A stretch of DNA of 39,723 bases from Myxococcota bacterium (GTDB lineage: Bacteria; Myxococcota_A; Bradymonadia; UBA7976; UBA1532). The position numbers and the translations under genes were made by a program. The notes under the pieces were generated by a model. That model made no database searches. It was not told where the DNA came from and was given only the letters and a program-made list of their open reading frames with translations. Shown here piece after piece: positions 759-39,723 of this stretch (position 1 is the stretch's first letter; each line of letters opens with the position of its first letter). The DNA is taken from positions 1-39,723 of the forward strand of contig JAKLJY010000075.1 of the NCBI GenBank assembly GCA_023150895.1, in the 5' to 3' direction.

Positions 759-1010
759 CCCCTTGATCCTTGCACCCTCGATCCCTTGATCCACGCTCAC
801 CGAGCCGAAAGCGGACGCGGCGCCGGCCCCGGCGCGCTTGCGCGCCGAGAAGGGCACGGCAGAGCGGTCGCCGGCGAGCCCGCCCGCGCCGGTCGTAACG
901 GCGCGCGGGGGGTCGCAGTGGTCGCCGGCGAGGCCGCAGCGAGTGCCCTGCCGCGCGGCAGCCCGGGTGGGGTCCAGGGCAAAGCCCTGGTCGCGCAATC
1001 CTCAACCGTC
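759..1010. repeat. Intergenic structured repeat element, copy A (longest copy), immediately 3' of caspase–FGE paralogue 1
   Basis: Shares 'cccttgatccttgc…gatcccttgatcc…cgagccgaaagcgg…ggtcgccggcgaggccgcagcgagtgccctg(t/c)cgcgcggcagcccgggt(t/g)gggtccagggc..agccctggtc' with 3802–3940 and 8090–8305. It contains two predicted hairpins (gccgc-a-gcga/tcgc-gcggc and ccaggg/ccctgg). ORF-track 'proteins' through it (MRAEKGTAERS…, MPPRSLDP…, MRAEEGPP…) share sequence only because of the repeat. Confidence 0.6.
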
Positions 1011-1116
1011 AGTGAGCCGGACACACGCCCCGCCGCGCGACTTGAACTCCGGCCCGGCCTCTGACCTGATCGTCTCGTCCGGCCGCGCCTCGGCCGCCAT
1101 CCAGAGGGTCCCGTCC

Positions 1117-18717: not shown

Positions 18718-21700
18718 TCACCGGTCGGGGCGCTGGGTCACCCGGATGGCACCGATCTCGGCTTTGCCCGCCCCGGCGCGGTTGACGAATCGCACGTCGA
18801 GCCGGCCGTCGGTGACGGGCACCAGGAAACGCCGGTGCTCCGCGGTGAACGTGCCGACCTCGAGCGCGATGTCATGGGCGGGCAGGAGCACGATGTCTTC
18901 GGCGATGACATCGAAGAGATGCGCGCCCGGCCGCTTGTTGACGATCTCGGCGAACAGCAGCTCGACCTCGTAGGTCCCGCTCGGCAGGCCGTCGAACCGG
19001 TACGCCGTGGGATCGCGGCGCAGGTTCTTGTACAGGGCGTCGTCCTCGGTGCCGGCGATGGCGCGGGCCGTCGCCACCGACGTCGACTTCTTGTTGATGT
19101 AGCCGAAGCCGCGAGCGACCGTGTACGGCGCGTCTGCCTCCCAGACGTCACCCACGACGTCCGTGTACAGGCCGCCGCCCGGGTTGAGCGCCTTCGTGAA
19201 GGCGGGCACGTTCAGCGTCACCGGGATCTCCAGTCTCGGATTGCGCGGGTCATTGGTCACGAGAACGATGCGTGCGCGGTAGAAGCCGGGAGACATGCCC
19301 GTCGTGTCGACGGTGATGGCCAGGTCGGTGCTGGCGCCCGCCTCGACGGTCCCGCGGGCGGGGTCGAGGGCGAGCCAGGGTACGTCCACGAAGGGCTCGA
19401 ACGCGGCGGCGTACGGGATGGCGTTCTCCAGGATGCGGTTGGGCTCCCACGGTGAAACCTGGTTGAACTCCATCGGCTGCCCGAGCGCCAGCACACGGCC
19501 GGCGCCGTAGTCGTATTCGACGCCCGTGGGCAGGCCGTGATCCAGGCCCATCGTCAGCACGGTGGCGCCTTCGGGCAGGCCATCGAAGCCCGCCATGCTC
19601 GCCGGGCCGGCCTCGAAGGGATCGGCGACGCCCTGCATCGTCGGGTGGCCGTTGGCGAGCACGTCATCGGAGAAGCTCTGGTACGTCAGGATGCCGACCC
19701 CGCCCGGCAGCGGCACGACCGAGCCGTCGCCCCCGTTCCAGCCGACGGAGGCCGCGCCGTAGAGCAGAAACCCGCCGTCGGCGACATAGGCGTCGAAGAC
19801 GGGGGCGACCTGGGCCAACGTGTCATAGAAGAACTGGGGTTGGTCGTTGGCCACGTAGACCATGCCGTAAGTGGACAGGTCGAGGCCGGCGAGTTCGGCG
19901 CTGCCCGCGATGTCGACGCGGATGCCGTTGGCGTTGAACACCTGCAGGTGGAGGTCGGAGTTCCAGGGGTAGTAGTCCATGAGCACCAGCGCGTCGCCCC
20001 CGGCCTGCGCGGCGGCGGCCGAGCGGGGCTGGTACTGCGGGGGCGGCGTCGCGGCATCGCCGTGTCCGGCTTGGGCCACGCGCGGCGCGAGGGCGGGCAC
20101 GCGCGCCACGTCTCGCTCGGCGGAGTCGAAGGCAAACGACAGCGCGCCGATGTTCTCGATGGCGACGACCTGCGTGCGCTGCTGTCCGGGCGCAATCTTG
20201 AGGAAGATCTCGGGCGTCTCGAGGACGGCGCGCGAAGAAGGCAGCGCGAAGTCCGCCGAAGCCACTGCGTTCTCCTCGATGATCGCGACGAGGCTCTCCG
20301 TGCCATAGTCCGGTGCGGACACGGTGAGGGCGTGCGAGCCGACCGGCAGCGTCAGGCTGTAACGGCCGTCGACACCGGTCACGCTCGCCCGGCCGGTCAC
20401 GTCGTCACTGACGATGGCGCCACTCACGGGCAGCCCGTCCACGCCGTCGACGACGGCGCCGGCGATCTCACCACCGATCGGGTTTGCGAACGAGATGACG
20501 AGCCCGTCGAACAGCACCGGCTGGTTCATCGAGTACTGGAAGCCGACGTCTCCGGCGGCGTTCTCGAGGCCGACGGTGGCGCCGATCCCGTTGGTGGTCT
20601 CCGTGATCCCCCGGTAGAGGAAGTCGATCCGCCCCGTGTGCTCATGGATCTGTACCTGGAAGTCGAATGGGTCGACCGACTGACCGAAGAGCACCATCGA
20701 GCGGTATTCGACGACGAAGACGCGGTCGCCCTCGACCCCCACGACCGTCGAGTAGACGCCGCCGTTCGCGACGAGGTCGTCCCAGTAGGGGAAGAGGGCG
20801 TTGTTCGGCTCTTCCGGGGACGGCAGCGGGCCGTTGACGTAGCTGAAGGCACCCGAAGCGTCGAAGCTGATGGTCCCATTCGTCGAAATCGTCGCCGACG
20901 TGTAGGTCCCGTCGAAGAACTTCACCGGGAACGGCAGCTCGACGGTGACGGCGGCGTCGTCCAGGGAGGACAGGCCGAGATCCGTGTCCGCGTCGATCCA
21001 GGCGACGTCGCCGCCGGTTCGGCAGGTGTGCCCGAAAGCGTCGGTGCGCTGCGCGAGGTGCAACCCCACCTCCAGGTCGGCCGCGAGCGAGACCGCGCGC
21101 TCACCGCGGTCGGTACATCCGCCGCCCGAGGCGGCGACGACGTAGTCTCCGGCGGGCAGGTCCGGGAAGCTGAATCCGCCGGTGGCGTCCGTCCGCACGG
21201 TCGGGACGGGTGCCCCCACGAGGCTGACGTCGATGCCCCCGAGCGGCGTGCCGGCCGCGTCGGTCACGGTGCCCGACAACGTATGGCGCGGCGCGTCGGC
21301 GAGCACGAGCAGGACCGTGACCTCGCCATCCTCGACGATGGCGAGGCCGGCCTCGGCGGCGGGCAGGTACCCGTAAGCCGTGGCAGACAGGTCGTAGATC
21401 TCCGGCTCACCGGCGCTGGCCTCGTCGACGGCAAGCAGCAGCGAGAAGGCCCCGGCGCCGTCCGTGACGGCACGGCGCACGCGGCCGTCGTCGCGTCGCG
21501 TGGCCACGAGCTGCACACCGGCGAGACCCGCGCCGGTCGGGTCGGTGACCTGCCCCGATACGCGCCCCGCCGTGGTCGGTGCCGCGTCGAGCGCCGCGCG
21601 CACGTCCAGACGGCCCTCGCCGAACTCGTTGTTGTCGGCCTCGTCGCCCCCGCAGCCGTAGACCGGCGCCAGGTCCGCGGCCGTCGACTCGAGCAGCGCG

Positions 21701-23001
21701 GCGGTGCCGGCGACGTCGCCTTGCAGGCTCGGAGCGGCGGACCACAGGAGCGCGATCGCGCCGCTCACGTGGGGGGCGGCCATCGAGGTGCCCGACAACC
21801 ACGAGTACCCACCGCCGGGCACGGACGACAAGACATCCTGCCCGGGGGCGGAGATGTCGGGCTTCAGCGAGCCGTCGATCGACGAGGGGCCCATGCTCGA
21901 GAACCAGGCGAGTGCGTCCGTGGTGTCCGTCGCGCCGACGCCGATGGATTCCGGGTAGTCCGCGGGCGAGCCGACGGTGCTGCACCCCGGCCCGCTGTTG
22001 CCGTTGGAGAACACGGGGAAGATGCCGGCGTCGCGCCAGGCCTGCACGATGCCCTGGAAAAAGAGATCACCGCCGCCGCCGCCCCAGGAGTTGTTGATCA
22101 CATGGGGCGCGCGGGCCGGATCGGGGTTGAGCCCGTTCTCGTCCGTGGGCGCGAGCATCCACTCGCCCGCGGCGAGCAGCACGTCGTACGGACAACTGCC
22201 ATAGGGGCAGGCCACGGCCGCGATGAACTTCGCGCCCGGCGCGACGCCGATGGCAGTGCCCCCCGCGTCGTCACCCACCATCGTCCCCATCGTGTGCGTG
22301 CCGTGAATGTCGGTATCACACGGCGCGCCCCCGCAGGCGCCGGAGGGGTCGAAGAAGTTGTAACCCATGCCGGGCGTGGCCGGGTCGTGTCCGCGAAAAC
22401 GACCGGAGAGCGCGGGGTGACTCACGTCGATCCCCGTGTCGAGGCTGCCGATCACGATGCCTTCGCCCTGGCCGAACTGGCTCCATGCCTCGGGCGCCCG
22501 GATCCGGTCGAGGTTCCACTCGGCCGGACTGGCGGCCACCTTGCCGAGGTCCACCGGACGCGGCACGGTGAGGACGCGGTCGGCCACGATGGCCGCCACG
22601 TCGGCGCGGCGCGCGAGCGTGTCGAGCAGCGCGGCGTCGCCCTCGACCTTGATGGCGTTGTTGATGAAGAAGCTCTTGTGCGGCGCCCGGGCCTGCAACA
22701 AGGCGGCCCGGACGCCCGCCTGCGTCCGGTCGGCGTTCGCTCTCAGGGCGTCGCGTGCGGCCCGGACGCGGCCGCCGTGCGTGCGCTCGGCCTGCGCCGC
22801 GGCGAGGTCCGGGCGCCCCCGCACCAGCACCCAGAACTCGCCCTTGCCCGCGCCGAGCCGTTCGCGCAGACCCGCCTCCACGGTGGCCCGCTCCATGGCG
22901 GCCGGGGCCGCCTGGGCCATCGCGCCCGATGGGACGGACACGAGTGTACTCGTCGAACACAGGGCGGCTGCGAGCGCAGCGGCGCCTTTCCACGTCTTCA
23001 T
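18718..23001 (-). CDS. Secreted S8-family subtilisin-like serine peptidase (1427 aa) with an N-terminal propeptide, CarbopepD_reg-like β-sandwich repeats and C-terminal carbohydrate-binding-like domains
   Basis: Signal peptide MKTWKGAAALAAALCSTSTLVSVPSGAMA. Catalytic triad motifs are SLDTGID (Asp), HGTHTMGT (His) and GTSMAAPHVSGA (Ser). Repeated 'GxVTDxxGxPLxGxxV' units are typical of carboxypeptidase-regulatory-like domains. The C-terminal region is malectin/CBM-like. Confidence 0.85.
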   Translation of the reverse strand: MKTWKGAAALAAALCSTSTLVSVPSGAMAQAAPAAMERATVEAGLRERLGAGKGEFWVLVRGRPDLAAAQAERTHGGRVRAARDALRANADRTQAGVRAALLQARAPHKSFFINNAIKVEGDAALLDTLARRADVAAIVADRVLTVPRPVDLGKVAASPAEWNLDRIRAPEAWSQFGQGEGIVIGSLDTGIDVSHPALSGRFRGHDPATPGMGYNFFDPSGACGGAPCDTDIHGTHTMGTMVGDDAGGTAIGVAPGAKFIAAVACPYGSCPYDVLLAAGEWMLAPTDENGLNPDPARAPHVINNSWGGGGGDLFFQGIVQAWRDAGIFPVFSNGNSGPGCSTVGSPADYPESIGVGATDTTDALAWFSSMGPSSIDGSLKPDISAPGQDVLSSVPGGGYSWLSGTSMAAPHVSGAIALLWSAAPSLQGDVAGTAALLESTAADLAPVYGCGGDEADNNEFGEGRLDVRAALDAAPTTAGRVSGQVTDPTGAGLAGVQLVATRRDDGRVRRAVTDGAGAFSLLLAVDEASAGEPEIYDLSATAYGYLPAAEAGLAIVEDGEVTVLLVLADAPRHTLSGTVTDAAGTPLGGIDVSLVGAPVPTVRTDATGGFSFPDLPAGDYVVAASGGGCTDRGERAVSLAADLEVGLHLAQRTDAFGHTCRTGGDVAWIDADTDLGLSSLDDAAVTVELPFPVKFFDGTYTSATISTNGTISFDASGAFSYVNGPLPSPEEPNNALFPYWDDLVANGGVYSTVVGVEGDRVFVVEYRSMVLFGQSVDPFDFQVQIHEHTGRIDFLYRGITETTNGIGATVGLENAAGDVGFQYSMNQPVLFDGLVISFANPIGGEIAGAVVDGVDGLPVSGAIVSDDVTGRASVTGVDGRYSLTLPVGSHALTVSAPDYGTESLVAIIEENAVASADFALPSSRAVLETPEIFLKIAPGQQRTQVVAIENIGALSFAFDSAERDVARVPALAPRVAQAGHGDAATPPPQYQPRSAAAAQAGGDALVLMDYYPWNSDLHLQVFNANGIRVDIAGSAELAGLDLSTYGMVYVANDQPQFFYDTLAQVAPVFDAYVADGGFLLYGAASVGWNGGDGSVVPLPGGVGILTYQSFSDDVLANGHPTMQGVADPFEAGPASMAGFDGLPEGATVLTMGLDHGLPTGVEYDYGAGRVLALGQPMEFNQVSPWEPNRILENAIPYAAAFEPFVDVPWLALDPARGTVEAGASTDLAITVDTTGMSPGFYRARIVLVTNDPRNPRLEIPVTLNVPAFTKALNPGGGLYTDVVGDVWEADAPYTVARGFGYINKKSTSVATARAIAGTEDDALYKNLRRDPTAYRFDGLPSGTYEVELLFAEIVNKRPGAHLFDVIAEDIVLLPAHDIALEVGTFTAEHRRFLVPVTDGRLDVRFVNRAGAGKAEIGAIRVTQRPDR

Positions 23002-27532: not shown

Positions 27533-27564
27533 TGTCGTTTCGTCATCACCCTACACTCGGCGTC

Positions 27565-27819: not shown

Positions 27820-28046
27820 GGGAGGTCGTTGCTTTCGACACCAACATCCTCATCTACGCCCTGAACGCGAGTGTGCCCGAACACCTCGCGGCGCGGCGAT
27901 TCCTGGAAGAGCTTGGTGAACGCGACTCGGTGGTCGTCAGTGAGCTCGTGCTCATCGAACTCTACGGGCTGCTCCGGATTTCGCTCGGCGTCGCATTTTC
28001 GATGCTCGCCTGGCCGGCGCGCGCCCTCGACAGGGCACTGAAGTGA
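27816..28046 (+). pseudogene. Truncated VapC-like PIN-domain toxin (N-terminal about 76 aa only)
   Basis: VVAFDTNILIYALNASVPEHLAARRFLEEL is the canonical PIN N-terminus with its first acidic residue (…FDTN…). The ORF stops after about 76 aa, so the distal catalytic Asp residues are missing. The convergent lipoprotein gene ends 113 bp later. Confidence 0.45.
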
Positions 28047-28158
28047 ACCCCGAGGGCGAAGCGCTGCGCGCGGTGCCTGCGTGGCGAGTGAGTCGCCAGC
28101 ACCGATGGGCACCAATCGCAGCTCGGAATCGCCGCCCGTCGAACACGGGACCGCCTGC

Positions 28159-30273: not shown

Positions 30274-30337
30274 CGTTCGAGCCTGCACGACGCGCAGGCT
30301 TGGGGCAAGAGGCGACTGACCCGCCGGGGCGAGGCCG

Positions 30338-30453
30338 CCGGGTTCGACGGCCAACTGCGCGTGACCGACGCCGCGCTCGTGCCGGGGGCCCCGTTCGCGT
30401 TCGAGTTCGACGTCGGCCTCTGGGTGGGCCTCGACACCGCGGCGGGGGAGTGA
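30338..30453 (+). repeat. Direct-repeat copy of the CotH gene 3' end (remnant fragment)
   Basis: caactgcgcgtgaccgacgccgcgctcgtgccggg(g/t)gccccgtt(c/t)gcgttcgagttcgacgtcggcctctgggtgggcctcg is about 95% identical to 27436–27525. It translates to …LRVTDAALVPGAPFAFEFDVGLWVGL… followed by a different tail. Confidence 0.6.
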
Positions 30454-30578
30454 CGGGGCCGGGCACTTCGGCCGCCCTGCGCGCAGGCCCGTGCGGTACA
30501 CTGTGTCCCGTGACGACCGACGACCCCAGTACGTCTACGCGCGCCCGTGCGGCCGCCCGCCGCCGGGCAACGTGGCCC

Positions 30579-30764
30579 ATGCGAATCACGTCGCTGGACG
30601 CCGCGGTCGACGACGACGGCTACGTCGACGCGCCCCCGGGTGAGCGCGTGGCGATGGTCTACGAGCTGACGCTGGCCGCCTGGGCGCTGTCGGGGCGCCC
30701 GATGCCGACGTACTCGCGGGCAGAGATCCCCGGTCGCCTGATTCGGGGGGACTCGAGCCCGTGA
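30579..30764 (+). CDS. Small ORF (61 aa) overlapping the start of the downstream nucleotidyltransferase-fold gene
   Basis: MRITSLDAAVDDDGYVDAPPGERVAMVYELTLAAWALSG…; its stop overlaps the downstream start (GTGA). No recognisable motif; could be a cognate partner/antitoxin or a non-coding leader. Confidence 0.3.
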   Translation: MRITSLDAAVDDDGYVDAPPGERVAMVYELTLAAWALSGRPMPTYSRAEIPGRLIRGDSSP

Positions 30765-31237
30765 GTGACGCACCGCGCCTCCTCGAAGACACCCGCGACC
30801 TGCTCGACGCCTTCGAGGACGCGGGGGTGGCCTACATCGTCGTGGGTGCGCACGCGCTGGCCGCGCACGGGATTCCCCGGGCAACGGGCGACTTCGATGT
30901 GCTCGTCCGACCGGATCGCGCGAACGCCACGCGGGTCCTCGCCGCGCTCCGGCACTTCGGCGCGCCCGTCGAGGCACACGGCCTCGAGGTCAGCGACTTC
31001 ACGCGCCCGGCGACGGTGTATCAGATGGGGCTTCCGCCGCGGCGCATCGACGTGCTGACGTCGGTCAGCGGCGTCGACTTCGACGAGGCCTGGGCCTCAC
31101 GCATCGAGGCCGAGGTCGACGGGCGCCGGCTGCCGGTGCTCGGACGCGCCGCCCTGCTGAAGAACAAGCGCGCCAGCGGGCGCCCGAAGGACCTCCTCGA
31201 TGTGGCGGCGCTCGAGCGATCATCCGGCGCGCGGTAG
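30761..31237 (+). CDS. Minimal nucleotidyltransferase (MNT)-fold protein
   Basis: IVVGAHALAAHGIPRATGDFDVLV matches the G[SA]x9–13DxD nucleotidyltransferase signature followed by a β-strand. The C-terminal …NKRASGRPKDLLDVAAL is typical of small NTase-fold toxin/antitoxin family members. Size is 158 aa. Confidence 0.5.
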   Translation: MSDAPRLLEDTRDLLDAFEDAGVAYIVVGAHALAAHGIPRATGDFDVLVRPDRANATRVLAALRHFGAPVEAHGLEVSDFTRPATVYQMGLPPRRIDVLTSVSGVDFDEAWASRIEAEVDGRRLPVLGRAALLKNKRASGRPKDLLDVAALERSSGAR

Positions 31238-31361
31238 AATGATCGCCGCACACGCGCCTGACCGAGAATCGCGCCGCCCCGGTGAATACCGCCGGCGTCC
31301 CTCTCGTCGGAGCCTCCGGAACTCGTCAGCACGAAACGGTACGGATCGAAACGGAAATCAC

Positions 31362-32339
31362 ATGCGGTCGACCCCGATGATCAGAAGCCCTTTCCACGCC
31401 GCGGCGAGCACCGTCGCGCTGTTCTCGGCCCTCGCAGGACTCGGTGCATGCAGCTCCGACGACGACGGAGCGGGGAACATCACCGCCTTCGGGCAGCAGT
31501 ACAGCGAGATCGTGTGCAGCGGGTTCGCCAGTTGTTGCGCGGACACGGGGCAGCCCGTGGACAAGGGCCAGTGTCAGCAGCTCTTCAACTACCAGATCGA
31601 CGAGTTCGAAGCCGGTATCAACAGCGGCAAGTTCACCTTCGACGCGTCGGCGGCCAATGAGTGCCTCGCGGCCGTGCGGGCCATGTCGAACCTGTGCACG
31701 GAAGAGCCCCCCACGGTCTGCGACAAGGTCACGAAGGGCACCGTCGGGGCCAACGAGCGCTGCGACGACGACGACGAATGCGCGGTTCCGCCCGGCGGAC
31801 AGGCCTCCTGTAACTACAGCGGCGAGGCCGAGTACGGCCGCTGCGAACAGACCGTGCGGGGCAAGGTGGGCGACGACTGCCAGCAAACGTGCGAGGACCT
31901 CGGCGGCGGGGGCTGGTCGTGCGGCGGCAGCGGTGAGGACCCCGTCGACGGGATCTCCACGGCCTGTTACCGCAACGACAACCTCGTCTGCGATTACGAG
32001 ACGAAGAAGTGCGTCGCCCTCGGCGCGGCCGGCGCCGACTGTGGCAACGATGACGACTGCGCGCAGGGGCTCTACTGCCCGTTCGAGACCAACAAGTGTA
32101 CGGCCCTCGGTGCCGCGGGCGCGGCCTGCACGTCGAACAGCGCCTGCGAGAGCGACTACTGCGATCCGTCGGACGTGTGCGCCCCGCCGCTCGCGCTCGG
32201 GGCGGCCTGTGACGCGAACGCGGAGCGCGACCCCTGCGGGGCGGACGGGCGCTGTTCCGAAGAGGGCAAGTGCGAGGAAGGCGGCCTCTTGGGCGGGGGC
32301 GGTGGCACTGCGCTCGTCTGCGGTTTCCTGGGCGGGTGA
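31362..32339 (+). CDS. Cysteine-rich repeat lipoprotein
   Basis: Lipobox in MRSTPMIRSPFHAAASTVALFSALAGLGAC. Multiple repeats of the C-x-ALGAAGAxC-x5-C-x4-C type, Asp/Gly/Cys-rich, indicating an extracellular disulfide-rich domain. Confidence 0.6.
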   Translation: MRSTPMIRSPFHAAASTVALFSALAGLGACSSDDDGAGNITAFGQQYSEIVCSGFASCCADTGQPVDKGQCQQLFNYQIDEFEAGINSGKFTFDASAANECLAAVRAMSNLCTEEPPTVCDKVTKGTVGANERCDDDDECAVPPGGQASCNYSGEAEYGRCEQTVRGKVGDDCQQTCEDLGGGGWSCGGSGEDPVDGISTACYRNDNLVCDYETKKCVALGAAGADCGNDDDCAQGLYCPFETNKCTALGAAGAACTSNSACESDYCDPSDVCAPPLALGAACDANAERDPCGADGRCSEEGKCEEGGLLGGGGGTALVCGFLGG

Positions 32340-32363: not shown

Positions 32364-33593
32364 TCAGCGCGGCGGCAGCGACGTGCGGCGCAGGCCGGCG
32401 GCGGCGACCAGGAAGACGGCGATGCCGCCGATGCCCAGGCCCGCCTCGGTGTAGAGCATGCCGTCGGCGCCCTTCACGTCGGCGACGTAGCCGAGCAACA
32501 ACCCCACCCACCAGATGGGGAAGTTCGAGAGGGTGGCGTAGAGGGTGTATTTCGTGGCCGCCGAGCCGGGGCCGATGGCGTCGAGCACGACGGCGGTGAA
32601 GGCGGCGTAGCTCAGCCCGACACCCAAGGAATACACCACGTTGCCCCCGACGTAGGTGGCGGGGGTCATGGGCAGCGCGGCCATGCCGCCGGCGACGATG
32701 GCCAGCGAGAGACCCATCGCGGCGTAGACGGCGCGCGGGGGGAAACGCATGCAGAGCCAACCGCCCATGAAGCACCCGGCGCCGTTGATGAGGCCGGCCA
32801 TGACACCCTGAACGAGCGCGACCTCGTGCTCGCCGGCGCCCCACTTCTCGGCGACGGCGGACTGCGTCAACACACCCTGCGCGGCGCCGGTGCCGATGGG
32901 CAGGAAACACAGGATGGCGCTCGCGAGGCCGCCCTGCGTGCGGGTCATGCCTCGGATGTTCGCGAAGACCTGCCCGATGGCCGCCTTCGGGCCCTGCCCG
33001 TGCCCCTCGGCCGGGAGGTCCGGCAGCGCGCGCAGGGCGAGGCAGCAGGCCGCGAAGAGCACCGCGAAGATGAGCCCGGTCATCCAGGCTTCGGGCAGGG
33101 CGTTGAGCAGCAGGAGCCCGACGCCGCCGCCGATGCCGGCCCCGCCGAGGTTGCCGGCCTGGAACCACGCGCTGACGCGGCCGATTTGATCAACGGGCGT
33201 GACCTGCGCCATCAGGGCCTCGACGGCCATGCCCACCATCGAGTTGACGAGGTTGGCCGCGGCGATGACCGCCAGCAGGAGCGGCAGCGTCTCCGGGCCG
33301 AGGGGGATGCTGGCGATGGCCGCGACGCCCACCGACGAGCCGAGCGCCGAGATGTAATACCAGCGCTTGGGCGTCAGCGTGGTGTCCACCAGGGGCGCCC
33401 AGATCCACTTCAGCCAGTTCATCATCAGGCCGGCGGCGCCCAAAAAAGCGCTCTCGGTGATGGACAGGCCGTGGCGCGTGCCCAGGAAGGTGAGCGCGAC
33501 CGTGACGAAACCGCCGAGGGCGCCGAACGGGAAGTACAGGATGGTGTAGACGACCGGGTGGGGGACCCGGTGCGGGTGCGCGGTCGCCGTCAC
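32364..33593 (-). CDS. MFS transporter, AmpG/PAT-family-like (muropeptide or lysophospholipid permease type)
   Basis: Multiple TM segments. MNWLKWIWAPLVD matches the AmpG/LplT loop-1 signature (LKFLWxPLxD). The GTG start overlaps the stop of the upstream vault-protein gene (GTGA). Length is 409 aa, confirmed by counting. Confidence 0.7.
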   Translation of the reverse strand: MTATAHPHRVPHPVVYTILYFPFGALGGFVTVALTFLGTRHGLSITESAFLGAAGLMMNWLKWIWAPLVDTTLTPKRWYYISALGSSVGVAAIASIPLGPETLPLLLAVIAAANLVNSMVGMAVEALMAQVTPVDQIGRVSAWFQAGNLGGAGIGGGVGLLLLNALPEAWMTGLIFAVLFAACCLALRALPDLPAEGHGQGPKAAIGQVFANIRGMTRTQGGLASAILCFLPIGTGAAQGVLTQSAVAEKWGAGEHEVALVQGVMAGLINGAGCFMGGWLCMRFPPRAVYAAMGLSLAIVAGGMAALPMTPATYVGGNVVYSLGVGLSYAAFTAVVLDAIGPGSAATKYTLYATLSNFPIWWVGLLLGYVADVKGADGMLYTEAGLGIGGIAVFLVAAAGLRRTSLPPR

Positions 33594-36115
33594 GTCGCGT
33601 CCGACTTCGGGCCGGTGAGGGCCTTGCCGTCGAGGACCCGCCCGAGGATGTTCGAGAGCGGCGTGCCCTCGAAGACCTTGGCGATGACGTCGGTGAGGTT
33701 CTTGCCGCCGATGAACTGCTGCACGCTCATGGCCTCGGCGATCTTGACGAGGACCTCGTGGTTGGAGAGCGCGAGCAGCGCCTCGCTGAAGCCGCCCTGG
33801 GCCGCCTCGAAGCGGGCGACGGTGGCCTCGACCTCGGCCTTGAGCGCGGCGAGGCGCAGCGCCTGCTCGCCCTCGCTGATCTCGTAGCGGATGGCCGCCG
33901 CGGTGCGATCCCGCTCGAGGCCGGCGGTGTGTTCGACCCCGACCGCCTCGGCCCGCGCCTCGGCGACCTTCTTCTGTTCGACGAGGGCCTTGATCTCGCC
34001 GATGAGGTGGGCGAGCTGCACGCGCTGCTTGTTCTCGGCCTCCTCGACGCCGAGCTCGGACAAGCGCCGCGACGTCTGTGCTTTCGCCTCCGCCGTCTGA
34101 CGATTGATGTCCTCCTGTCGCTGCGTGGCCTCGAGCGCGCGATTCGCCCGCTGCAGCGCGATGTTGGACTCGACGGCCTCGTGCTGCGCGAGATTGAGCA
34201 GGCGCGCGATGTTCTCGTCGCCGATGGTCACGCCGAGGACCTCGACGTCCGTGACGTGCATGCCGTTCTCCTTGAACTTCATGCCCGTCCGCCCGCCGCC
34301 CTCGGCAGGCACGCCGAGGATGGTGTCGCGGATGACGTCGACGCTCTGTCGGTAGAACTGATCGACGCTGATGCGTTTGACGACGCCCTTGAGCACCGAG
34401 CGGACGTGGTCGCAGAGGAACTTGACGTAGTTCTCGACCTCGAACCACCGCATGGGATCGTCGGTGAAGTTCACGCGCAGCGAGTATTCGAGGCGCACCC
34501 GCACGTGATCGGCCGTCTCGACCTCGCAGATGTCCGAGACCTTGTTGTTGAGCACGCGCAGGAACACCGTGCGCAGCAGTTTGTCGGTGCTCTTCGGTTT
34601 GCCCGTCGAGAGTTCGATGACCTCGAAGGACTCGTCGTAGGCGAGCAGCAGGTTCTTCGGGCCGACCTCGACGCGGCGGTTGCCCTTCTTGTCGACGATC
34701 ATCAGCGCGTAGCCCACCCACACGCTGATGGCGGGCACGCCCTCGAACTTGGTGTTGAAGACCAGCGTGCGGGGCTGGTTGAACTGACTCACGCGGTCGA
34801 CGGTGTCACCGGCGCTCGCGGCGCGCTCCCGGGCGGCGCCGACCCCGGCGGCGACGGCTTGTGCGGCGGGCACGGCGGCCGCCTTGGCGCCGGGGGCCTG
34901 CGCGCGCTGGTAGTCCCCCTCGGAGATGACGCCCGCCCGAGCCCCCGGGGTCTCGTTGGCCATCGCGCGCAGCGCGCGGTTGTAGGCGAGGGCCTCCTCG
35001 TTGCCGGGGTACCACGTCGCACACTCGCGATCCGACAGGATGCGGCGCACGATGATCTCGTCGACCGGGTTGGGCAGGAGCATCAGCGGGCCGGCCGCCA
35101 TGCGGATCTCGCCCGACTTCCGGTTCATGACATAGCGCGCCTCACCGGCGGGAATGGCCACGGCGAAGTGTTTCTCGCGCCCGTCGTACCGCACGAGGGA
35201 GTGTTCTTCGCGCGGGAAGTAGATGGCCGTCTCTTTGCCCGTGATGAAGAGCTCGTCGCCCTCGGAGTACGCCCGCCCCTGCTCGTCTTTGTAGGGGGCG
35301 ATGATCTTGATGTGCAGGCCCTGAATCTCGTTGAGCTCCAGGGCTTTGAACTTGCGGTGGCCTTCTTTGACGATGAACGTCTCGGTCGGCTCGGGGAAGA
35401 CCACCTGCGGCCCGCGCTCGTAGCGCTTCTTGCCGTTCTGATCCACCAGGATGCAGTACTCGAGGCGCTCGAGCGTCAGCGCATCGCGGACGTAGTGGTT
35501 GTTTTCGTCCGTGACGACCCCCACACCCGTCGGCGGAATGTAAAACGAGACGTCCGTCCCCTTGATGATGAGCAGTTTACCGACGGTGAGGTCCGCCGGG
35601 ACGCGTGAGACCGGGGCCTCGGCCGCGCCCTCGGTGGCCGGCTTGACGACCGCCGTCGCCCAGTTCTTGCGTGCCTCTTCCTCGTTGTAGACCCGCACGA
35701 GCAGGTACTGATTCGAGCGCAGGTGGTGCCCCTGCACCAGCTTGACGATCTGCCCCGGCCACAGCGCGAACGCGCACGGCCCCGTGATGTTGATCTTGCG
35801 GCCGACCTCGAGATCCGGCCCGGGGTGAACGCCGCCCGGCGTGGGGTGGTCGTTGCGGACCGACGGGTTCTTGAGCACCAGGTAGAAGCCCTCGGGCGCG
35901 ATGGCGATCTGCTGCACCGCCTCTTCGAGGCCGCAGGGCTCGAAGCGTTTGCTCGTCGGGTTGAAGACGACCGGCCGCTCCTGCGCGGTGGGGTTGATGA
36001 CCGTCGGGCCGGTGTAGGTCTTCACCACGCCCTTCGTCACGTCCTGCATGTACGCGTATTCGCTGGGGGCCAGCACCAGATCTCGTTTGCTCACGCGGTC
36101 GTCCACGGTCGGCAC
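33590..36115 (-). CDS. Major vault protein (MVP) homologue
   Basis: Collinear with eukaryotic MVP: the N-terminal MVP-repeat start (LVLAPSEYAYMQDVTKGVVKTYTGP against human [26 protein letters not shown]); repeated β-rich modules; shoulder-domain blocks RVEVGPKNLLLAYDESFEVIELSTGKPKS (human [30 protein letters not shown]) and EVETADHVRVRLEYSLRVNFTDDP (human [27 protein letters not shown]); and an SPFH-like/coiled-coil cap region (…NIALQRANRALEATQRQEDINRQTAEAKA…). Confidence 0.75.
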   Translation of the reverse strand: MPTVDDRVSKRDLVLAPSEYAYMQDVTKGVVKTYTGPTVINPTAQERPVVFNPTSKRFEPCGLEEAVQQIAIAPEGFYLVLKNPSVRNDHPTPGGVHPGPDLEVGRKINITGPCAFALWPGQIVKLVQGHHLRSNQYLLVRVYNEEEARKNWATAVVKPATEGAAEAPVSRVPADLTVGKLLIIKGTDVSFYIPPTGVGVVTDENNHYVRDALTLERLEYCILVDQNGKKRYERGPQVVFPEPTETFIVKEGHRKFKALELNEIQGLHIKIIAPYKDEQGRAYSEGDELFITGKETAIYFPREEHSLVRYDGREKHFAVAIPAGEARYVMNRKSGEIRMAAGPLMLLPNPVDEIIVRRILSDRECATWYPGNEEALAYNRALRAMANETPGARAGVISEGDYQRAQAPGAKAAAVPAAQAVAAGVGAARERAASAGDTVDRVSQFNQPRTLVFNTKFEGVPAISVWVGYALMIVDKKGNRRVEVGPKNLLLAYDESFEVIELSTGKPKSTDKLLRTVFLRVLNNKVSDICEVETADHVRVRLEYSLRVNFTDDPMRWFEVENYVKFLCDHVRSVLKGVVKRISVDQFYRQSVDVIRDTILGVPAEGGGRTGMKFKENGMHVTDVEVLGVTIGDENIARLLNLAQHEAVESNIALQRANRALEATQRQEDINRQTAEAKAQTSRRLSELGVEEAENKQRVQLAHLIGEIKALVEQKKVAEARAEAVGVEHTAGLERDRTAAAIRYEISEGEQALRLAALKAEVEATVARFEAAQGGFSEALLALSNHEVLVKIAEAMSVQQFIGGKNLTDVIAKVFEGTPLSNILGRVLDGKALTGPKSDAT

Positions 36116-36239
36116 TCCTTCGTTTCAGGGCAATCGCCGCAACCATCGGCGGTTTGAGCGGACGGGGCAAGGCCCGGCGCGCGCGTCGGACACGGGGCGA
36201 CTTGCGACCGGGGGGCCGGCCCGGGCATCAGACCGGATC

Positions 36240-37133
36240 GTGAGCTTTTCCGAACTCCGCGCTTTCCTCCTCGTCGCCGAGAAGGGTTCCTTCCTGGCGG
36301 CGGCCATCGCCTCGGGCGAGTCGCGCACGACGCTGCGCCGGCACGTCGACGCGCTCGAGGCCCGGGCGGGGGTGCCGCTCTTGCACCGCGACCGCCGGGG
36401 GGTCATCCCCACCGAGGCGGGCACGCGCCTGCTGGCGTCGGGCCGGGTCATGGAGCGCGAGTTCACGGACCTGCTGACGTCGATTCGCGAGATGGGGCGC
36501 CTGCCCTCCGGCACCGTGCGGGTGCTGCTGCCCGTCGGGCTGCCGATGACCGGACTTTCGGCGATTCAAGCCTTGCTGAAGGCCTCGTTCCCGCAATTGC
36601 GCTTCCGGTTGACGTTCTACGACGGTCCGTTGGGCCCCACGCCGCCCGAGGCCGACGTCGTGGCGTGGTTCGGCGAGACGCCGCCGCCGGGCGCCTGGGA
36701 GGCCCGGGTCGTCACGCGGGCGCGGCAACGCCTGCTGGCCGCGCCGGCCTATCTCGAGATGCACGGCACGCCGACCGACGTCGAGAGCCTGTGCCGGCAC
36801 GAGCTGGCCGTCTTCGCGGCGCCGGACGATCCCGCCGGACGGCTGGTCACCCGCACGGGGCAGCGCGTCCCCAAGGAGCCGCTGGTGGTGACGAGCAACG
36901 TCGACTTTCTGCACGCGACGGCCCGCAGCGGCGCCGCCATCGCCTGGGTGCCCGACGGCGACGTGCCGCCCCCGCCCGGTGAGCCGCCGCTCGTGCCCGT
37001 GCTCGAGGCGCTCTTCGGGCGGGACGTGCCCGTCTCGGTGGGCGTGCCGGCGGCCCTCGTCGAACTGCCCAAGGTGCGGGTCTTTCTGGAGAACCTGACG
37101 GCCATCCGCGACGCGGGCCTCAGCGCGCGCTGA
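36240..37133 (+). CDS. LysR-family transcriptional regulator
   Basis: GTG start gives VSFSELRAFLLVAEKGSFLAAAIASGESRTTLRRHVDALEARAGVPLLHRDRRGVIPTEAG, an N-terminal LysR wHTH. A C-terminal substrate-binding-like domain follows. It is divergent from the MVP–MFS operon. Confidence 0.8.
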   Translation: MSFSELRAFLLVAEKGSFLAAAIASGESRTTLRRHVDALEARAGVPLLHRDRRGVIPTEAGTRLLASGRVMEREFTDLLTSIREMGRLPSGTVRVLLPVGLPMTGLSAIQALLKASFPQLRFRLTFYDGPLGPTPPEADVVAWFGETPPPGAWEARVVTRARQRLLAAPAYLEMHGTPTDVESLCRHELAVFAAPDDPAGRLVTRTGQRVPKEPLVVTSNVDFLHATARSGAAIAWVPDGDVPPPPGEPPLVPVLEALFGRDVPVSVGVPAALVELPKVRVFLENLTAIRDAGLSAR

Positions 37134-37148
37134 CGCCGCGGCCCGTTC

Positions 37149-39167
37149 CTACGGGATCGCGTCCTCGATGTTCGAATAGAGACCGTAGATGCGCCCGCAG
37201 ACGGGGTGCTGGATGAACGCGCGGGACCGGTAGCGGTAACGCCCGCCGTTGACCCGCGGCGCGTCGAGGTGGCTGCGCGCCTCGGCCGGCAAATCACCGC
37301 TGATGTTGTCCCAGGCCGCGGCGTCGCCGGCATCCTCGCCGGGGTCGAGCCGGGCCACGCGGAAGCCGGAGACCGCCGGCCCCTGATACTCCCAGGTCAC
37401 CCGCACGGGCTGTGGCTCGGGGGTGTTTTCGCCCTGTCGCGCGGCGACCAGATTGCGGGGGGCCGGGGGGCCTGCGGGGCACTCGTTGCCGCCCCCGGCG
37501 CAGTCCCCGCCGTCGAGCCCGCAGGCCGCGACGTTGCAGTCTTCGTCGCACTCGCCATCGCCGATCCAGTCGGCGGGGCAGCCGGGCGCACACTCCGCGC
37601 CGGGCTCGCCGCCCGCGCAGTCCCCCCCGTCGAAGGCGCAGGCCGCGACGTTGCACGCGTCGTCGCAGACGCTGTCACCGGGCCAGTCCGCGGGGCAGCC
37701 GGGGGCGCACTCCTCGCCCGGGTTGACCTCGGCGCAGTCCCCCGCGTCGAAGCCGCAGGGGCCCACGTTGCAGACATCGTCGCAGGTGCCGTCGCCGAGC
37801 CACTCCACGGCGCAATCCGGCGCGCAGACGGCCGGGCCGCCCTCACAATCGCCCGCGTCGAACCCACAGGCGGCCACCCGGCAGGCGACGTCGCAGGTGC
37901 CGTCGCCAATCCACTCGGCGGGGCAGCCCGGGGCACAGTCGGGGCCCGGCACCACGCCCGCGCAGTCGCCGTCGTCGAAACCGCACGCCTCGACGTCGCA
38001 GGTCGCATCGCAGGTGCCATCGCCGCGCCACTCCGGGAAGCAGTTGGGCGCACACTGTTCGACACCCGGATCCGGGCCGGGTCCGGCCTCGCAGTCCCCC
38101 CCGTCGAAGCCGCAGGCCTCAACGTTGCAGTCGACGTCGCAGGTGCCGTCGCCGCGCCACTCGGCGTAACAGCCGGGGGCGCAGAGCGCGGGATCCGGCC
38201 CCGGTCCGGGACCCCCCGCGCAGTCGCCGTCGTCGAAACCGCAGGCCTCGACGTCACAGTCGGCGTCGCAGGTGCCGTCCCCGCGCCACTCGGCGAGGCA
38301 GCCCGCGGCGCAGAGACCGGGATCGGGCCCGGGGCCCCCGGCGCAGTCGCCGTCGTCGTGATTGCAGGCCGCCACGTCGCAGTCGACGTCGCAGGTGCCG
38401 TCGCCGCGCCATTCGGCGAGGCAACCGGGCGAGCAGACCTCGTCGGGGTCCACCCCGGGGCCGGCGTCGGGGGCGTCGGCGCAGTCGCCGTCGTCGTGAT
38501 CGCAAGCAGCGGTGTTGCAATCGACGTCGCAAGTGCCATCGCCCCGGAACGCCGCCAGACAGCCCGGCGCGCAGAGTTGGCCGGGGTCGAAGCCGGGGCC
38601 GGCGTCGGGCACGTCGGCGCAGTCACCGTCGTCGTGATTGCAGGCCTCGACGTTGCAGTCGACGTCGCAGGTGCCGTCGCCGCGGAAGGCCGCCAGACAG
38701 CCCGGCGCGCACGCCTGATCGGGATCGAGGCCCGGGCCGGCGTCGGGCACGTCGGCGCAGTCGCCGTCGTCGTGATTGCAGGCCGCGACGTTGCAGTCGA
38801 CGTCGCAGGTGCCGTCGCCGCGGAAGGCCGCCAGGCACCCCCGCGCACAGGCGTCGGGGTCGGGCCCGGGCGCGCCACCCGTGCCGCCCGATGCGTTGCC
38901 GCCCGATGCGTTGCCGCCCGTCGCCCCGCCGGTGCCGCCGGTTGCAACTCCGCCGGTGCCGCCGGTTGCGACTCCGCCGGTGCCGCCCGTGAGACCCCCG
39001 CCGGTGCCGCCCGCGACCCCGCCGCTGCCGGTGCCGGCGTCGTCTCCCGTCGAGGCCGCGTCGGTATCGGTGTTTTCGCCGCAGCCGGCGGCCGTCAGGG
39101 TCAGGAGCAACGCCAGGCGGGCCGCCCGACCGATCGTCGTGCCCAGCGGGCTTCGTTCGAGCGCCAT
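37149..39167 (-). CDS. Lipoprotein with about 14 tandem Lin-12/Notch (LNR) repeats, an N-terminal Gly/Thr-rich linker and a C-terminal FN3-like domain
   Basis: Start MALERSPLGTTIGRAARLALLLTLTAAGC. The linker is GTGGGLTGGTGGVATGG…. Repeats such as CAPGCLAAFRGDGTCDVDCNVAACNHDDGDCA match the LNR consensus C-x3-C-x5-GDG-x-CD-x2-CN-x3-C-x2-D(G/D)GDC. The C-terminus PAPRNLVAARQGE…VRVTWEY is FN3-like. Confidence 0.75.
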   Translation of the reverse strand: MALERSPLGTTIGRAARLALLLTLTAAGCGENTDTDAASTGDDAGTGSGGVAGGTGGGLTGGTGGVATGGTGGVATGGTGGATGGNASGGNASGGTGGAPGPDPDACARGCLAAFRGDGTCDVDCNVAACNHDDGDCADVPDAGPGLDPDQACAPGCLAAFRGDGTCDVDCNVEACNHDDGDCADVPDAGPGFDPGQLCAPGCLAAFRGDGTCDVDCNTAACDHDDGDCADAPDAGPGVDPDEVCSPGCLAEWRGDGTCDVDCDVAACNHDDGDCAGGPGPDPGLCAAGCLAEWRGDGTCDADCDVEACGFDDGDCAGGPGPGPDPALCAPGCYAEWRGDGTCDVDCNVEACGFDGGDCEAGPGPDPGVEQCAPNCFPEWRGDGTCDATCDVEACGFDDGDCAGVVPGPDCAPGCPAEWIGDGTCDVACRVAACGFDAGDCEGGPAVCAPDCAVEWLGDGTCDDVCNVGPCGFDAGDCAEVNPGEECAPGCPADWPGDSVCDDACNVAACAFDGGDCAGGEPGAECAPGCPADWIGDGECDEDCNVAACGLDGGDCAGGGNECPAGPPAPRNLVAARQGENTPEPQPVRVTWEYQGPAVSGFRVARLDPGEDAGDAAAWDNISGDLPAEARSHLDAPRVNGGRYRYRSRAFIQHPVCGRIYGLYSNIEDAIP
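37440..38870. repeat. Tandem roughly 96–102-bp coding repeats (LNR modules) within the 37149..39167 gene
   Basis: Reiterated 'cagtc(g/c)ccgtcgtcgtgattgcaggcc(g/t)cgacgt(t/c)gcagtcgacgtcgcaggtgccgtcgccgcg…' units are visible by eye across about 1.4 kb. Confidence 0.7.
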
Positions 39168-39418
39168 CGTGACCTCCCCGTAAAATGCTCGGGGGTCACG
39201 CTAACAGAGGCGCCCGGTATCCGTCGATGCGCGGTTGGAGCATGTCGCCGTAACGCCCGCCGGCTGCGGTCGCCCGTTTCGGCCGCCCGCCGGCTTTCGG
39301 CTTCACTCCCTTGGTCGCGCTACCAACGGGTAGCGCTCGGTCGGTCGTTCCAGGCGCGCTCGGCGGTCGCCTCGACCCGAGCGACCTCGCATCGGCATCG
39401 GTTACGGCGACAAGCTCC

Positions 39419-39723
39419 TATAGCCCGCAATCGCCGCCGTCGAAACCGCAGGCGGCCACGTCGCACTCGACGTCGCACCATCCGTCGCCGGGCCAGTCGG
39501 CGGGGCAGCCGGGGGCGCACTCCGCACCGGGATCCGCGCCCCCGCCGCAGTCGCCGCCGTCGAAGTTGCACTCGGCCACGTCGCATTCGGCGTCGCACCA
39601 GCCATCGCCGGGCCAGTCGGCGGGGCAGCCGGGGGCGCACTCGCCGCCGGGGTCGCCGCCGCCCGCACAGTCGCCGTCGTCGAAGAAGCACGCCGCGAAG
39701 TAGCAGTAGTCGTCGCAGTAACC
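39419..39723 (-). CDS. 3' end of a second LNR-repeat protein gene (partial; continues beyond the window end)
   Basis: Reverse-complement translation of 39422–39723 gives …CDDYCYFAACFFDDGDCAGGGDPGGECAPGCPADWPGDGWCDAECDVAECNFDGGDCGGGADPGAECAPGCPADWPGDGWCDVECDVAACGFDGGDCGL*. No Met lies inside the window, so the ORF track does not list it. Confidence 0.55.

Follow-up and report, generated by a model that had tools for sequence, protein, structure and literature searches.

The minus strand of the window (the whole 39,723-nucleotide stretch of DNA that was analysed) carries a gene, here called gene 1, that codes for a putative lipoprotein built mainly from tandem Lin-12/Notch repeat (LNR) modules. 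There are 11 of these modules and they are bona fide LNRs, each with six invariant Cys and four invariant Asp residues. Gene 1 is genuine and native, and it evolves under purifying selection. Judging from its sequence, the product is best read as a lipid-anchored envelope protein of a freshwater Bradymonadia-like (Myxococcota) bacterium, and we are close to certain of its identity as an LNR-array envelope protein. As it stands, this sequence-based annotation of gene 1 is well supported. The initial annotation of this DNA had already reported the 672-aa reading frame, and its layout is given in Table 1 together with that of the adjacent gene 2.

Table 1. Positions in the window of the features of gene 1, gene 2 and the DNA between them
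Feature	Position	Strand	Basis or remark
Gene 1, CDS of the putative 672-aa LNR-array lipoprotein	37149..39167	-	ORF; stop codon 37149-37151
Shine-Dalgarno sequence GGGGAGG	39173..39179	-	5 nt 5' of the gene 1 ATG at 39167; read from sequence
Putative signal peptide and lipobox, aa 1-29 (...LLLTLTAAG-C29)	39081..39167	-	sequence pattern
Gly-rich low-complexity tether, aa 30-106 (77 aa)	38850..39080	-	composition and tandem repeats
11-module LNR array, aa 107-556	37500..38849	-	regex, Pfam, PDB sequence matches, AF2 model
LNR cores of 93 nt, first six	38757-38849, 38619-38711, 38481-38573, 38343-38435, 38220-38312, 38091-38183	-	
LNR cores of 93 nt, last five	37962-38054, 37845-37937, 37734-37826, 37617-37709, 37500-37592	-	
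C-terminal 116-aa domain, possibly divergent FN3-like	37152..37499	-	phmmer, family profile, low-confidence AF2
Gene 2-gene 1 intergenic spacer, 250 nt	39168..39417	-	about 70 nt in L001
Gene 2, 3' end (last 101 aa and stop; runs off the window end)	39418..39723	-	translation, regex, Pfam
Gene 2 LNR modules, one partial	39667-39723	-	
Gene 2 LNR modules, two complete	39547-39639, 39427-39519	-	

The LNR assignment is right because it is given by the Pfam HMM, by sequence matches to the solved GNPTAB and Notch1-3 structures and by a confident AlphaFold model. The LNR domain (Pfam PF00066, PROSITE PS50258) is a module of about 35 aa with six conserved cysteines and a cluster of conserved Asp/Asn residues by which one Ca2+ is coordinated. 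PF00066 was the sole domain match of gene 1 in the Pfam scan. It scored 230.1 bits (cutoff 21.2; E = 2e-69) over 11 stretches, and therefore the match is not due to chance and the LNR identity first proposed for these repeats is upheld. Every module follows the spacing C-x3-C-x9-C-x3-C-x4-C-x6-C, which a regular expression fitted to 11/11 modules of gene 1 and to two of gene 2, and the Asp residues of GDGxCD and DxGDC are invariant in all 13. The acidic positions align with those of Notch2 and GNPTAB, and an alignment of 44 LNR triplets shows no variation at 18/18 Cys and at one Asp of each module. A phmmer search of PDB sequences also retrieved the LNRs of GNPTAB (E = 5.5e-13) and of the Notch1-3 NRR. 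The module count is 11 instead of the approximately 14 initially claimed, since 66 of the 69 gene 1 cysteines belong to modules of six cysteines each, and the remaining three correspond to the putative lipobox Cys and to two residues in or beside the C-terminal domain.

LNR disulfides connect C1 to C5, C2 to C4 and C3 to C6. Three disulfides are present in Notch LNRs (PMC9579167). By analogy with known LNRs, it is reasonable to suppose that the modules bind Ca2+ and that the gene 1 product has a surface or adhesion role. Modules are separated by linkers of 6-15 aa, rich in Pro, Gly and Asp. The whole array, of 450 aa, is highly charged: 102 residues are acidic and 9 are basic, which gives a net charge of -93.

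The modules are also predicted to adopt the LNR fold. The AlphaFold (AF2) model of modules 9-11 has a mean pLDDT of 84.2 and a pTM of 0.40, the latter value fitting beads that are flexibly linked. When this model was compared with known structures using Foldseek, 14/14 matches at E <= 0.001 were to the Notch NRR (E = 9e-8 to 3e-6), the next match being PAPP-A (E = 3e-3), so that the significant matches of the predicted structure were solely to Notch NRR and PAPP-A LNRs, in line with the domain identity proposed at the outset. Identity to the Notch NRR structures is 35-40% and single modules superpose at an rmsd of 1.1-1.5 Å. However, the global rmsd is approximately 8 Å and therefore the inter-module arrangement of the model differs from that of Notch.

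Three related sequences are informative about the gene and its array. L001, a 3.2-kb contig from a Bradymonadia MAG, has the same gene pair and architecture with 10 modules; its C-terminal six modules are orthologous one-to-one to those of gene 1 (84-97% identical), whereas the N-terminal modules are reshuffled. L002 is an independent contig of 95% identity that is collinear with gene 1 from module 7 to the stop codon; its sequence breaks off within the array, where module 7 begins. L011, a more distant relative, has about 6-7 modules. The predicted copy-number polymorphism is thus found (11 modules here, 10 in L001 and about 6-7 in L011). One related contig belongs to a lake metagenome MAG. 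The window protein had no exact match on record in public assemblies.

Gene 1 is considered real because it is preceded by a strong Shine-Dalgarno sequence, its GC3 (0.89) is similar to that of the neighbouring genes and dN/dS with respect to L001 is low (0.064 for LNR6-11 and 0.075 for the C-terminal domain). With a dN/dS of about 0.06-0.08, strong purifying selection acts on the array, which is old. The initial annotation described 1.4 kb of near-perfect repeats that had recently expanded. The extent is about right (1350 nt), but the modules are merely 65-94% identical to each other in nucleotide sequence, the longest exact repeat being 49 nt, and Tandem Repeats Finder detected 71-84% matches in the array. 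The recent expansion does not hold either: synonymous divergence is already 0.28 between units 1 and 2, the youngest, whose cores are 94% identical, and ranges over 0.2-0.76 for all module pairs, while between orthologues it reaches 0.39-0.50. If the module count is in error, this would concern units 1-4 alone, by one module.

The location of the product in the envelope is proposed because the lipobox Cys and the Gly-rich tether are kept in L001 and L011 and because the relatives of the C-terminal domain carry signal peptides. A Cys occupies the lipobox-equivalent place, after a hydrophobic region, in both L001 (LALGG-C) and L011 (WGSA-C). The lipoprotein reading of the initial annotation fits this putative lipobox Cys29, kept in three family members; position -3 of the gene 1 lipobox is Ala, the canonical residue being Leu. 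The tether contains 42% Gly and zero Lys/Arg, is partly coded by 15- and 24-nt tandem repeats (Tandem Repeats Finder, 38882-39030), and has comparable Gly-rich stretches in L001 and L011.

The C-terminal domain had no Pfam match, including fn3, at E <= 1. An exhaustive phmmer search with this domain gave 74 matches; among the 10 that were scanned are proteins in which FN3 repeats accompany an S8 or M43 peptidase domain. In proteins that carry FN3 repeats according to Pfam, where scanned, the phmmer matches cover several stretches, up to 10 in one protein. The domain family shows conserved motifs; its members occur in secreted bacterial proteins, of which they always form the extreme C-terminus, and all the proteins with this domain have signal peptides. 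A profile of the family gave weak FN3 matches in the PDB (E = 0.026). An AF2 model of LNR10-11 plus the C-terminal domain, built on an 11-row alignment, showed approximately six strands and was discarded as low-confidence (pLDDT 49). These results point weakly to a divergent FN3-like beta-sandwich belonging to an unnamed subfamily. NCBIfam has no model matching gene 1, nor one that covers the C-terminal domain family in five of its relatives, and therefore this domain has no link to a known sorting domain.

The second LNR gene announced at the window end is indeed there: the gene 2 tail matches PF00066 with 70.6 bits (E = 1.5e-19) in 3 stretches, and the protein terminates in ...CGFDGGDCGL directly after its last module. 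The same gene 2 tail precedes the gene 1 orthologue in L001, so that the pairing of both LNR genes is conserved in a related species. Genome and metagenome scans for the N-terminal part of gene 2 yielded just short or broken contigs, from which this part was not recovered, and protein searches with both gene 2 tails retrieved solely fragments and unrelated short LNR proteins. Neither a sigma-70-like promoter nor a terminator was detected in a scan of positions 36900-39723. The neighbouring genes give no clue to the function of gene 1. A LysR gene was considered as a dedicated regulator and rejected because the 95%-identical contig L002 lacks it. A gene coding for an S8 protease is present in the same window (18718..23001), 14 kb from gene 1.

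We propose, with about an even chance of being right, that the gene 1 product functions as an envelope-anchored, Ca2+-stabilised and disulfide-rich stalk that presents binding modules. The protein would be exported by Sec and then lipidated at Cys29, and each module, once in the envelope or outside the cell, where conditions are oxidising and Ca2+ is present, would fold around one Ca2+ ion and three disulfides. The result would be a highly acidic stalk, like beads on a string, in which short Pro/Gly/Asp linkers connect approximately 11 compact modules; the flexible Gly-rich tether would fix it to the membrane and the putative FN3-like domain would form its tip. To our knowledge, all LNRs characterised so far, namely those of the Notch NRR, PAPP-A and GNPTAB, provide surfaces for Ca2+-dependent contact with proteins. 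Because of this analogy, the array would most likely be a multivalent Ca2+-dependent surface for binding and recognition as well as a spacer; candidate targets are a partner cell, prey or a matrix component. The length of the array would be adjusted by unequal recombination between its N-terminal units.

The charge of the array might instead be its main property. The protein would then be a polyanionic Ca2+ reservoir, or a protein interacting with matrix or mineral, whose bulk cation binding at the envelope, and not specific recognition, would serve for Ca2+ buffering, cross-linking of the envelope or exopolymer, or control of carbonate nucleation in hard-water lakes. Every LNR would be a Ca2+ site (PMC9579167), the net charge of -93 and the Asp-rich linkers suit such a function, and so does the lake origin of a related contig. 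However, a bulk polyanion would not need the preservation of the Cys/Asp pattern and of module identities (84-97%, dN/dS 0.06), and the conservation of the distal, putatively FN3-like domain points to a specific function at the tip. Moreover, we know of no LNR protein that acts as a buffer, and we consider this explanation unlikely.

Similarly improbable in our judgement is that the protein acts as a partner or regulator of secreted proteases, its LNRs serving as exosites or masks in the way they do in the Notch NRR and PAPP-A. In that case, the C-terminal domain would be a docking or sorting module common to S8 and M43 peptidases that gathers the array and the proteases at one envelope site, and gene 2 would possibly code for the enzyme. 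Although the closest relatives of this domain terminate FN3-array proteins with Peptidase_S8 and Peptidase_M43 (pappalysin-family) domains, a terminal FN3-like module in common is a weak argument for functional coupling. One LNR homologue (P0003) does carry an M4 peptidase domain, and PAPP-A LNRs govern substrate and inhibitor binding (PMC9579167), but gene 1 lacks a catalytic domain and gene 2 is seen as its last 101 aa alone. As for the S8 protease encoded in the window, its gene is distant.

An artefactual origin of the array, by misassembly of repeats, contamination with eukaryotic DNA or a spurious ORF in high-GC sequence, is very improbable: repeats are known to hamper assembly, the cores of units 1 and 2 are 94% identical and L002 breaks in the array, but most modules differ by 15-35% in DNA with no exact repeat beyond 49 nt, L002 is otherwise collinear to the stop codon, a separate species (L001) has matching architecture and gene pair, and a GC3 similar to that of bacterial neighbours, a dN/dS of about 0.07 and the Shine-Dalgarno sequence are those of a native gene.

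The best-known LNR modules are those of Notch, PAPP-A and GNPTAB. Recent papers on pappalysins state that LNRs are otherwise known solely from Notch receptors (PMC9579167, PMC11925022). A putative bacterial lipoprotein composed almost wholly of 11 LNRs indicates that the module can work as a free-standing, iterated unit in the prokaryotic envelope, and the gene 1 product would offer a simple system, dependent on disulfides and Ca2+, in which to study how LNRs fold and bind ligands outside Notch. More speculatively, and with little probability in our view, long LNR arrays on lipoproteins might be an unrecognised class of Ca2+-dependent recognition or adhesion stalks in predatory Myxococcota of the Bradymonadia type, with the adjacent LNR gene coding for a partner and with a bearing on the origin of eukaryotic LNRs. 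If the stalk does mediate contact with other cells or prey, it would represent a new adhesin architecture for predatory Myxococcota and a data point on the inter-domain sharing of "eukaryotic" extracellular modules. On the more speculative reading, GNPTAB-like bacterial LNRs would bear on the source of eukaryotic LNRs, either bacterial origin or inter-domain transfer.

Among the known systems, GNPTAB (PDB 7s05) is the best sequence match with a solved structure. Its LNR1 has the same cysteine spacing as the gene 1 modules, and the motif CxxGCPxxWIxDGxCDxxC...DxGDC is common to both. GNPTAB LNRs are lumenal and mediate the recognition of protein substrates (PMC8913297). However, one or two LNRs are inserted in a Stealth-family transferase in that case, while gene 1 has 11 in tandem on a putative lipoprotein and lacks Stealth CR1-CR4, DMAP or a catalytic domain. 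Membership of the Stealth/GNPTAB family was rejected, since Stealth Pfam matches, present in the eukaryotic homologues P0074-P0095, are absent from gene 1.

The Notch NRR (LNR-A/B/C; PDB 3eto, 2oo4, 4zlp and 7abv) shares the fold of the predicted model, the six-Cys pattern and the Asp-rich Ca2+ motif, but it has exactly three LNRs that wrap the heterodimerisation domain and mask the cleavage site. Gene 1 does not belong to the Notch receptors: the EGF, NOD/NODP (HD), transmembrane and ANK parts are absent, Pfam finding PF00066 alone. PAPP-A LNRs bind Ca2+ and contact substrate and inhibitor (PMC9579167, PMC11925022). LNR1-3 of PAPP-A/PAPP-A2 match the gene 1 model structurally (E = 3e-3), and a Peptidase_M43 protein (P0102) is among the relatives of the gene 1 C-terminal domain. 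The pappalysin LNRs are dispersed within a metzincin protease and have one or two disulfides each, whereas the gene 1 modules are in tandem, appear to be of the three-disulfide type and are accompanied by no peptidase domain. Membership of the pappalysins (Peptidase M43) was rejected because Pfam detects no M43 catalytic domain in gene 1.

Long arrays are known from protist multi-LNR proteins (for example Corallochytrium Clim_evm19s208, a Pelomyxa 'LNR domain protein' and an apicomplexan 'notch domain-containing protein') and from metagenomic eukaryotes, which have 6-17 tandem modules and, like gene 1, mostly no other Pfam domain. These proteins differ in having no lipobox, Gly tether or FN3-like C-terminal domain and are 30-36% identical to gene 1. 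The three long-array loci that were checked look eukaryotic, with low GC and with IP3 receptor and synaptobrevin genes nearby, and the other database arrays of 9-17 LNRs have protist-like sequence composition.

A further group is formed by the LNR proteins of probable bacteria (for example the Myxococcota MAG protein MEC9465796.1, or P0082, and P0010, P0058, P0019 and P0080). None of them has the gene 1 C-terminal domain, and their partner domains are somatomedin B, Lcl_C, DUF4214, VWA and M4 peptidase; the fusion of LNRs to the last four places them beside extracellular modules. They have secreted or lipoprotein N-termini, their LNRs are of the same subtype as those of gene 1 (48-63% identity) and, in the case of P0010, a second LNR gene follows. 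The domain family is already catalogued, 'LNR domain-containing protein' being an existing NCBI name for Myxococcota proteins. For this reason, and because arrays of 9-17 LNRs exist, the uniqueness that the initial annotation implied for the array is not maintained. However, the probable bacterial proteins have 1-7 modules, a bacterial/eukaryotic split drawn from gene neighbourhood and composition at a handful of loci rather than from a census, and the 11-module array of gene 1 is unusually long for a bacterium.

The first gene of interest is a 672-aa ORF with a strong Shine-Dalgarno sequence (GGGGAGG, 5 nt 5' of the ATG), in a window whose G+C content is about 72% throughout. A pattern search detects 11 copies of a 31-residue LNR (Lin-12/Notch repeat) module in its product, instead of the approximately 14 of the initial annotation. 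The module layout is C-x3-C-x9-C-x3-C-x4-C-x6-C, Asp being invariant in GDGxCD and DxGDC, and 66 of the 69 cysteines sit in these modules. The count could plausibly be off by one, but only among the four N-terminal units that resemble each other most. The second gene had been described as carrying the same module and does so: its tail contains one partial and two complete copies, and the stop codon follows directly after the last one.

Features of the window discussed in the text (residue numbers are those of gene 1)
Feature	Position	Strand	Description
Gene 1	37149..39167	(-)	672-aa ORF
Predicted signal peptide and lipobox Cys	residues 1-29		sequence pattern
Gly-rich tether	residues 30-106		composition (42% Gly, few charges)
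Tether DNA repeats	38882..39030		in-frame, 15- and 24-nt periods, 83-100% matches
LNR array	residues 107-556; 37500-38849		1350 nt; linkers of 6-15 residues (Pro/Gly/Asp); net charge -93
C-terminal domain	residues 557-672; 37152..37499	(-)	separate domain
Gene 2, 3' end	39418..39723	(-)	last 101 residues; frame enters from window end
LysR-family regulator	36048..37133	(+)	convergent with gene 1
Predicted MVP-like protein	33590..36115	(-)	841 aa
Large protein	838..3801	(+)	caspase-like C14, three PEGA and FGE-sulfatase domains
Large S8 subtilase	18718..23001	(-)	CarboxypepD_reg repeats, C-terminal malectin domain
Candidate Cys-rich protein	31200..32339	(+)	379-aa ORF

The modules belong to the LNR family, as initially proposed, on the evidence of their profile match, cysteine pattern, acidic motif and predicted fold. 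The Pfam Notch/LNR profile (PF00066) matches gene 1 in 11 stretches (E = 2e-69, 230 bits, cutoff 21.2) and the gene 2 tail with E = 1.5e-19, the repeats being scored as Notch/LNR and not as another Cys-rich family. Among solved structures, the top sequence match is to the GNPTAB LNR modules (E = 5.5e-13), whose Cys spacing is identical, and the LNRs of the Notch1-3 negative regulatory regions (NRRs) are also among the best. Modules 9-11 were modelled with AlphaFold from a 44-row alignment of LNR triplets, in which all cysteines and one Asp of each module are fully conserved. The model (mean pLDDT 84.2, pTM 0.40) suggests well-defined beads whose mutual orientation is not fixed. Every Foldseek match of this model in the PDB contains LNRs, with the Notch1/2/3 NRRs first (E = 9e-8 to 3e-6) and PAPP-A next, and single modules superpose at 1.1-1.5 Å. 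According to published work, each LNR binds one Ca2+ via conserved acidic residues, and Notch LNRs have three disulfides (PMC9579167). Gene 1 lacks the domains that define Notch receptors, pappalysins and Stealth/GNPTAB enzymes, and so belongs to none of these three groups.

The GC3 of gene 1 (0.89) is the same as that of neighbouring genes. A Bradymonadia (Myxococcota) MAG from a lake metagenome (contig L001) carries a 644-aa orthologue, 81% identical in the best segment, which shares the predicted lipobox, the tether, the LNR array and the C-terminal domain; the gene before it also ends in CGFDGGDCGL, as gene 2 does. Between gene 1 and this orthologue, dN/dS is 0.064 for LNR6-11 and 0.075 for the C-terminal domain. 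A 95%-identical contig, L002, is collinear with the window from module 7, where the contig breaks, to the stop codon, and the more distant relative on L011 is built alike, with about 6-7 modules, another neighbourhood and an apparent internal frameshift. Taken together, these observations make mis-assembly, contamination or a spurious ORF unlikely. At L011:902-2350 the gene falls into two ORFs: what looks like a frameshift or stop codon interrupts the LNR array between 1681 and 1727, and it could reflect a pseudogene or an error of sequencing or assembly within the repeats.

The DNA repeats of the array are real and far beyond chance, yet they fall short of the near-perfect identity that had been claimed: identity between module cores is 65-94%, no exact repeat is longer than 49 nt, and the matches given by Tandem Repeats Finder are 71-84%. 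Identity among modules is 87%, 77% and 64% at codon positions 1, 2 and 3, the third being the most diverged. Array length differs between species, as had been predicted, with 11 modules in gene 1 versus 10 in the L001 orthologue. The change is confined to the N-terminal end: window modules 6-11 match orthologue modules 5-10 one-to-one (84-97% identity), whereas the N-terminal modules show no such pairing, and window units 1-4, with a 46-residue period and of the CNHDDGDC type, are lineage-specific. The expansion does not appear to be recent, since units 1 and 2 already differ at 28% of synonymous sites (other module pairs, 32-76%), the value between the window and the L001 species being 39-50%. 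The tether is also partly encoded by tandem repeats, which specify GGTGGVAT-type sequence and are likelier to slip than the LNR array.

The C-terminal domain of gene 1 has no match in Pfam or NCBIfam. With HMMER, 74 relatives were identified in an exhaustive search; in the best of them, the matching domain is the very last of the protein. These sequences (for instance, P0101-P0117) form an unnamed conserved subfamily with the motifs SGFRVARLDPGED, WDNVGGDLP, YxYKVRAF, PCGRVY and YSNxDxANP, for which NCBIfam holds no model. A Pfam scan of 10 relatives showed that some have canonical FN3 arrays, Peptidase_S8 or Peptidase_M43 domains. A first AlphaFold run that included the domain was too poor for use (pLDDT 49). 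The subfamily profile matches PDB FN3 domains only weakly (E = 0.026), and we describe the domain as FN3-like, divergent and terminal. A signal peptide was present in all 12 relatives with N-termini examined. The domain stood at the extreme C-terminus in 12 of the 12 examined, and this constant position suggests that it takes part in sorting or anchoring.

Published mention of bacterial LNR motifs is only incidental (PMC7649014), and in eukaryotes the LNR domain is considered ancient (PMC2770060). A large protein database includes arrays with as many as 17 modules. Loci were inspected for three of the longest: the contig of P0004 is eukaryotic, with genes for an IP3 receptor and synaptobrevin as neighbours, that of P0007 has few genes and low G+C, and that of P0002 has low G+C and ambiguous neighbours. 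The remaining arrays of at least 9 modules show protist-like, K/E/N-rich sequence. Bacterial-looking proteins have 1-7 LNRs joined to other extracellular domains (Lcl_C, DUF4214, VWA, somatomedin B and M4 peptidase), and NCBI names one of them "LNR domain-containing protein [Myxococcota bacterium]". In a sample of top word-sharing candidates that is no census, the longest arrays of clearly bacterial origin belong to the predicted lipoproteins of 10-11 modules. Adjacent LNR gene pairs recur, since in an unrelated prokaryotic metagenome contig (L012:6001-9368) the gene for P0010, a lipoprotein of 679 aa and 5 LNRs, is directly followed by an LNR gene with RCC1/WD40_RLD repeats. On another contig (L013:6001-6819; 121 kb, 36% G+C), the gene for P0174, a lipobox protein of 272 aa and four LNRs, adjoins S_layer_C and TRM5/TYW2-type methyltransferase genes, a hint that archaea, too, may have LNR lipoproteins.

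The LysR-family regulator is absent from L002 (compare L002:947-978), where window positions 36183-37124 have no counterpart. Because closely related sequences differ by this indel, the regulator cannot be regarded as a conserved partner of gene 1. Downstream of gene 1, beyond LysR and directly adjacent in L002, lies a gene for a putative bacterial MVP-like protein (Major Vault Protein shoulder PF11978, E = 2.9e-27; Vault repeat PF17795, E = 8e-10). Window positions 27524-31236 (about 3.7 kb) are replaced by about 0.5 kb in L002. The ORF at 31200..32339 may encode another Cys-rich secreted protein, with a sub-threshold match to the Dickkopf N-terminal cysteine-rich region (E = 0.0022, 18.7 bits, cutoff 25).

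Gene 1 is best described as a new architecture of a catalogued domain: a predicted lipoprotein in which a Gly tether is followed by 11 LNRs and then by the putative FN3-like domain, with a second LNR gene alongside. Such an array is striking, and bacterial examples are under-described; the domain is catalogued and similar bacterial proteins are already auto-annotated. We are highly confident that the product is an LNR-array envelope protein. It would be exported and then lipidated, and its modules would fold outside the cytoplasm around disulfides and Ca2+, giving a long, very acidic stalk with flexible joints and an FN3-like tip. Multivalent binding or adhesion combined with a spacer role is the function we favour, with evenly balanced confidence. 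The net charge of the array could instead indicate a bulk Ca2+/polyanion role, and the peptidase relatives of the C-terminal domain could point to a partner or regulator of secreted proteases; we consider these two roles equally improbable, and an artefact is hardly credible. Genomic context favours none of these readings: LysR is missing from L002, a promoter/terminator scan around gene 1 detected nothing, and searches for the remainder of gene 2 recovered none of it. Binding and spacing are preferred because the LNRs of Notch, PAPP-A and GNPTAB are Ca2+-dependent protein-contact modules. Those of Notch mask a cleavage site. Those of PAPP-A bind substrate and inhibitor (PMC9579167, PMC11925022), and those of GNPTAB recognise lysosomal enzymes (PMC8913297).
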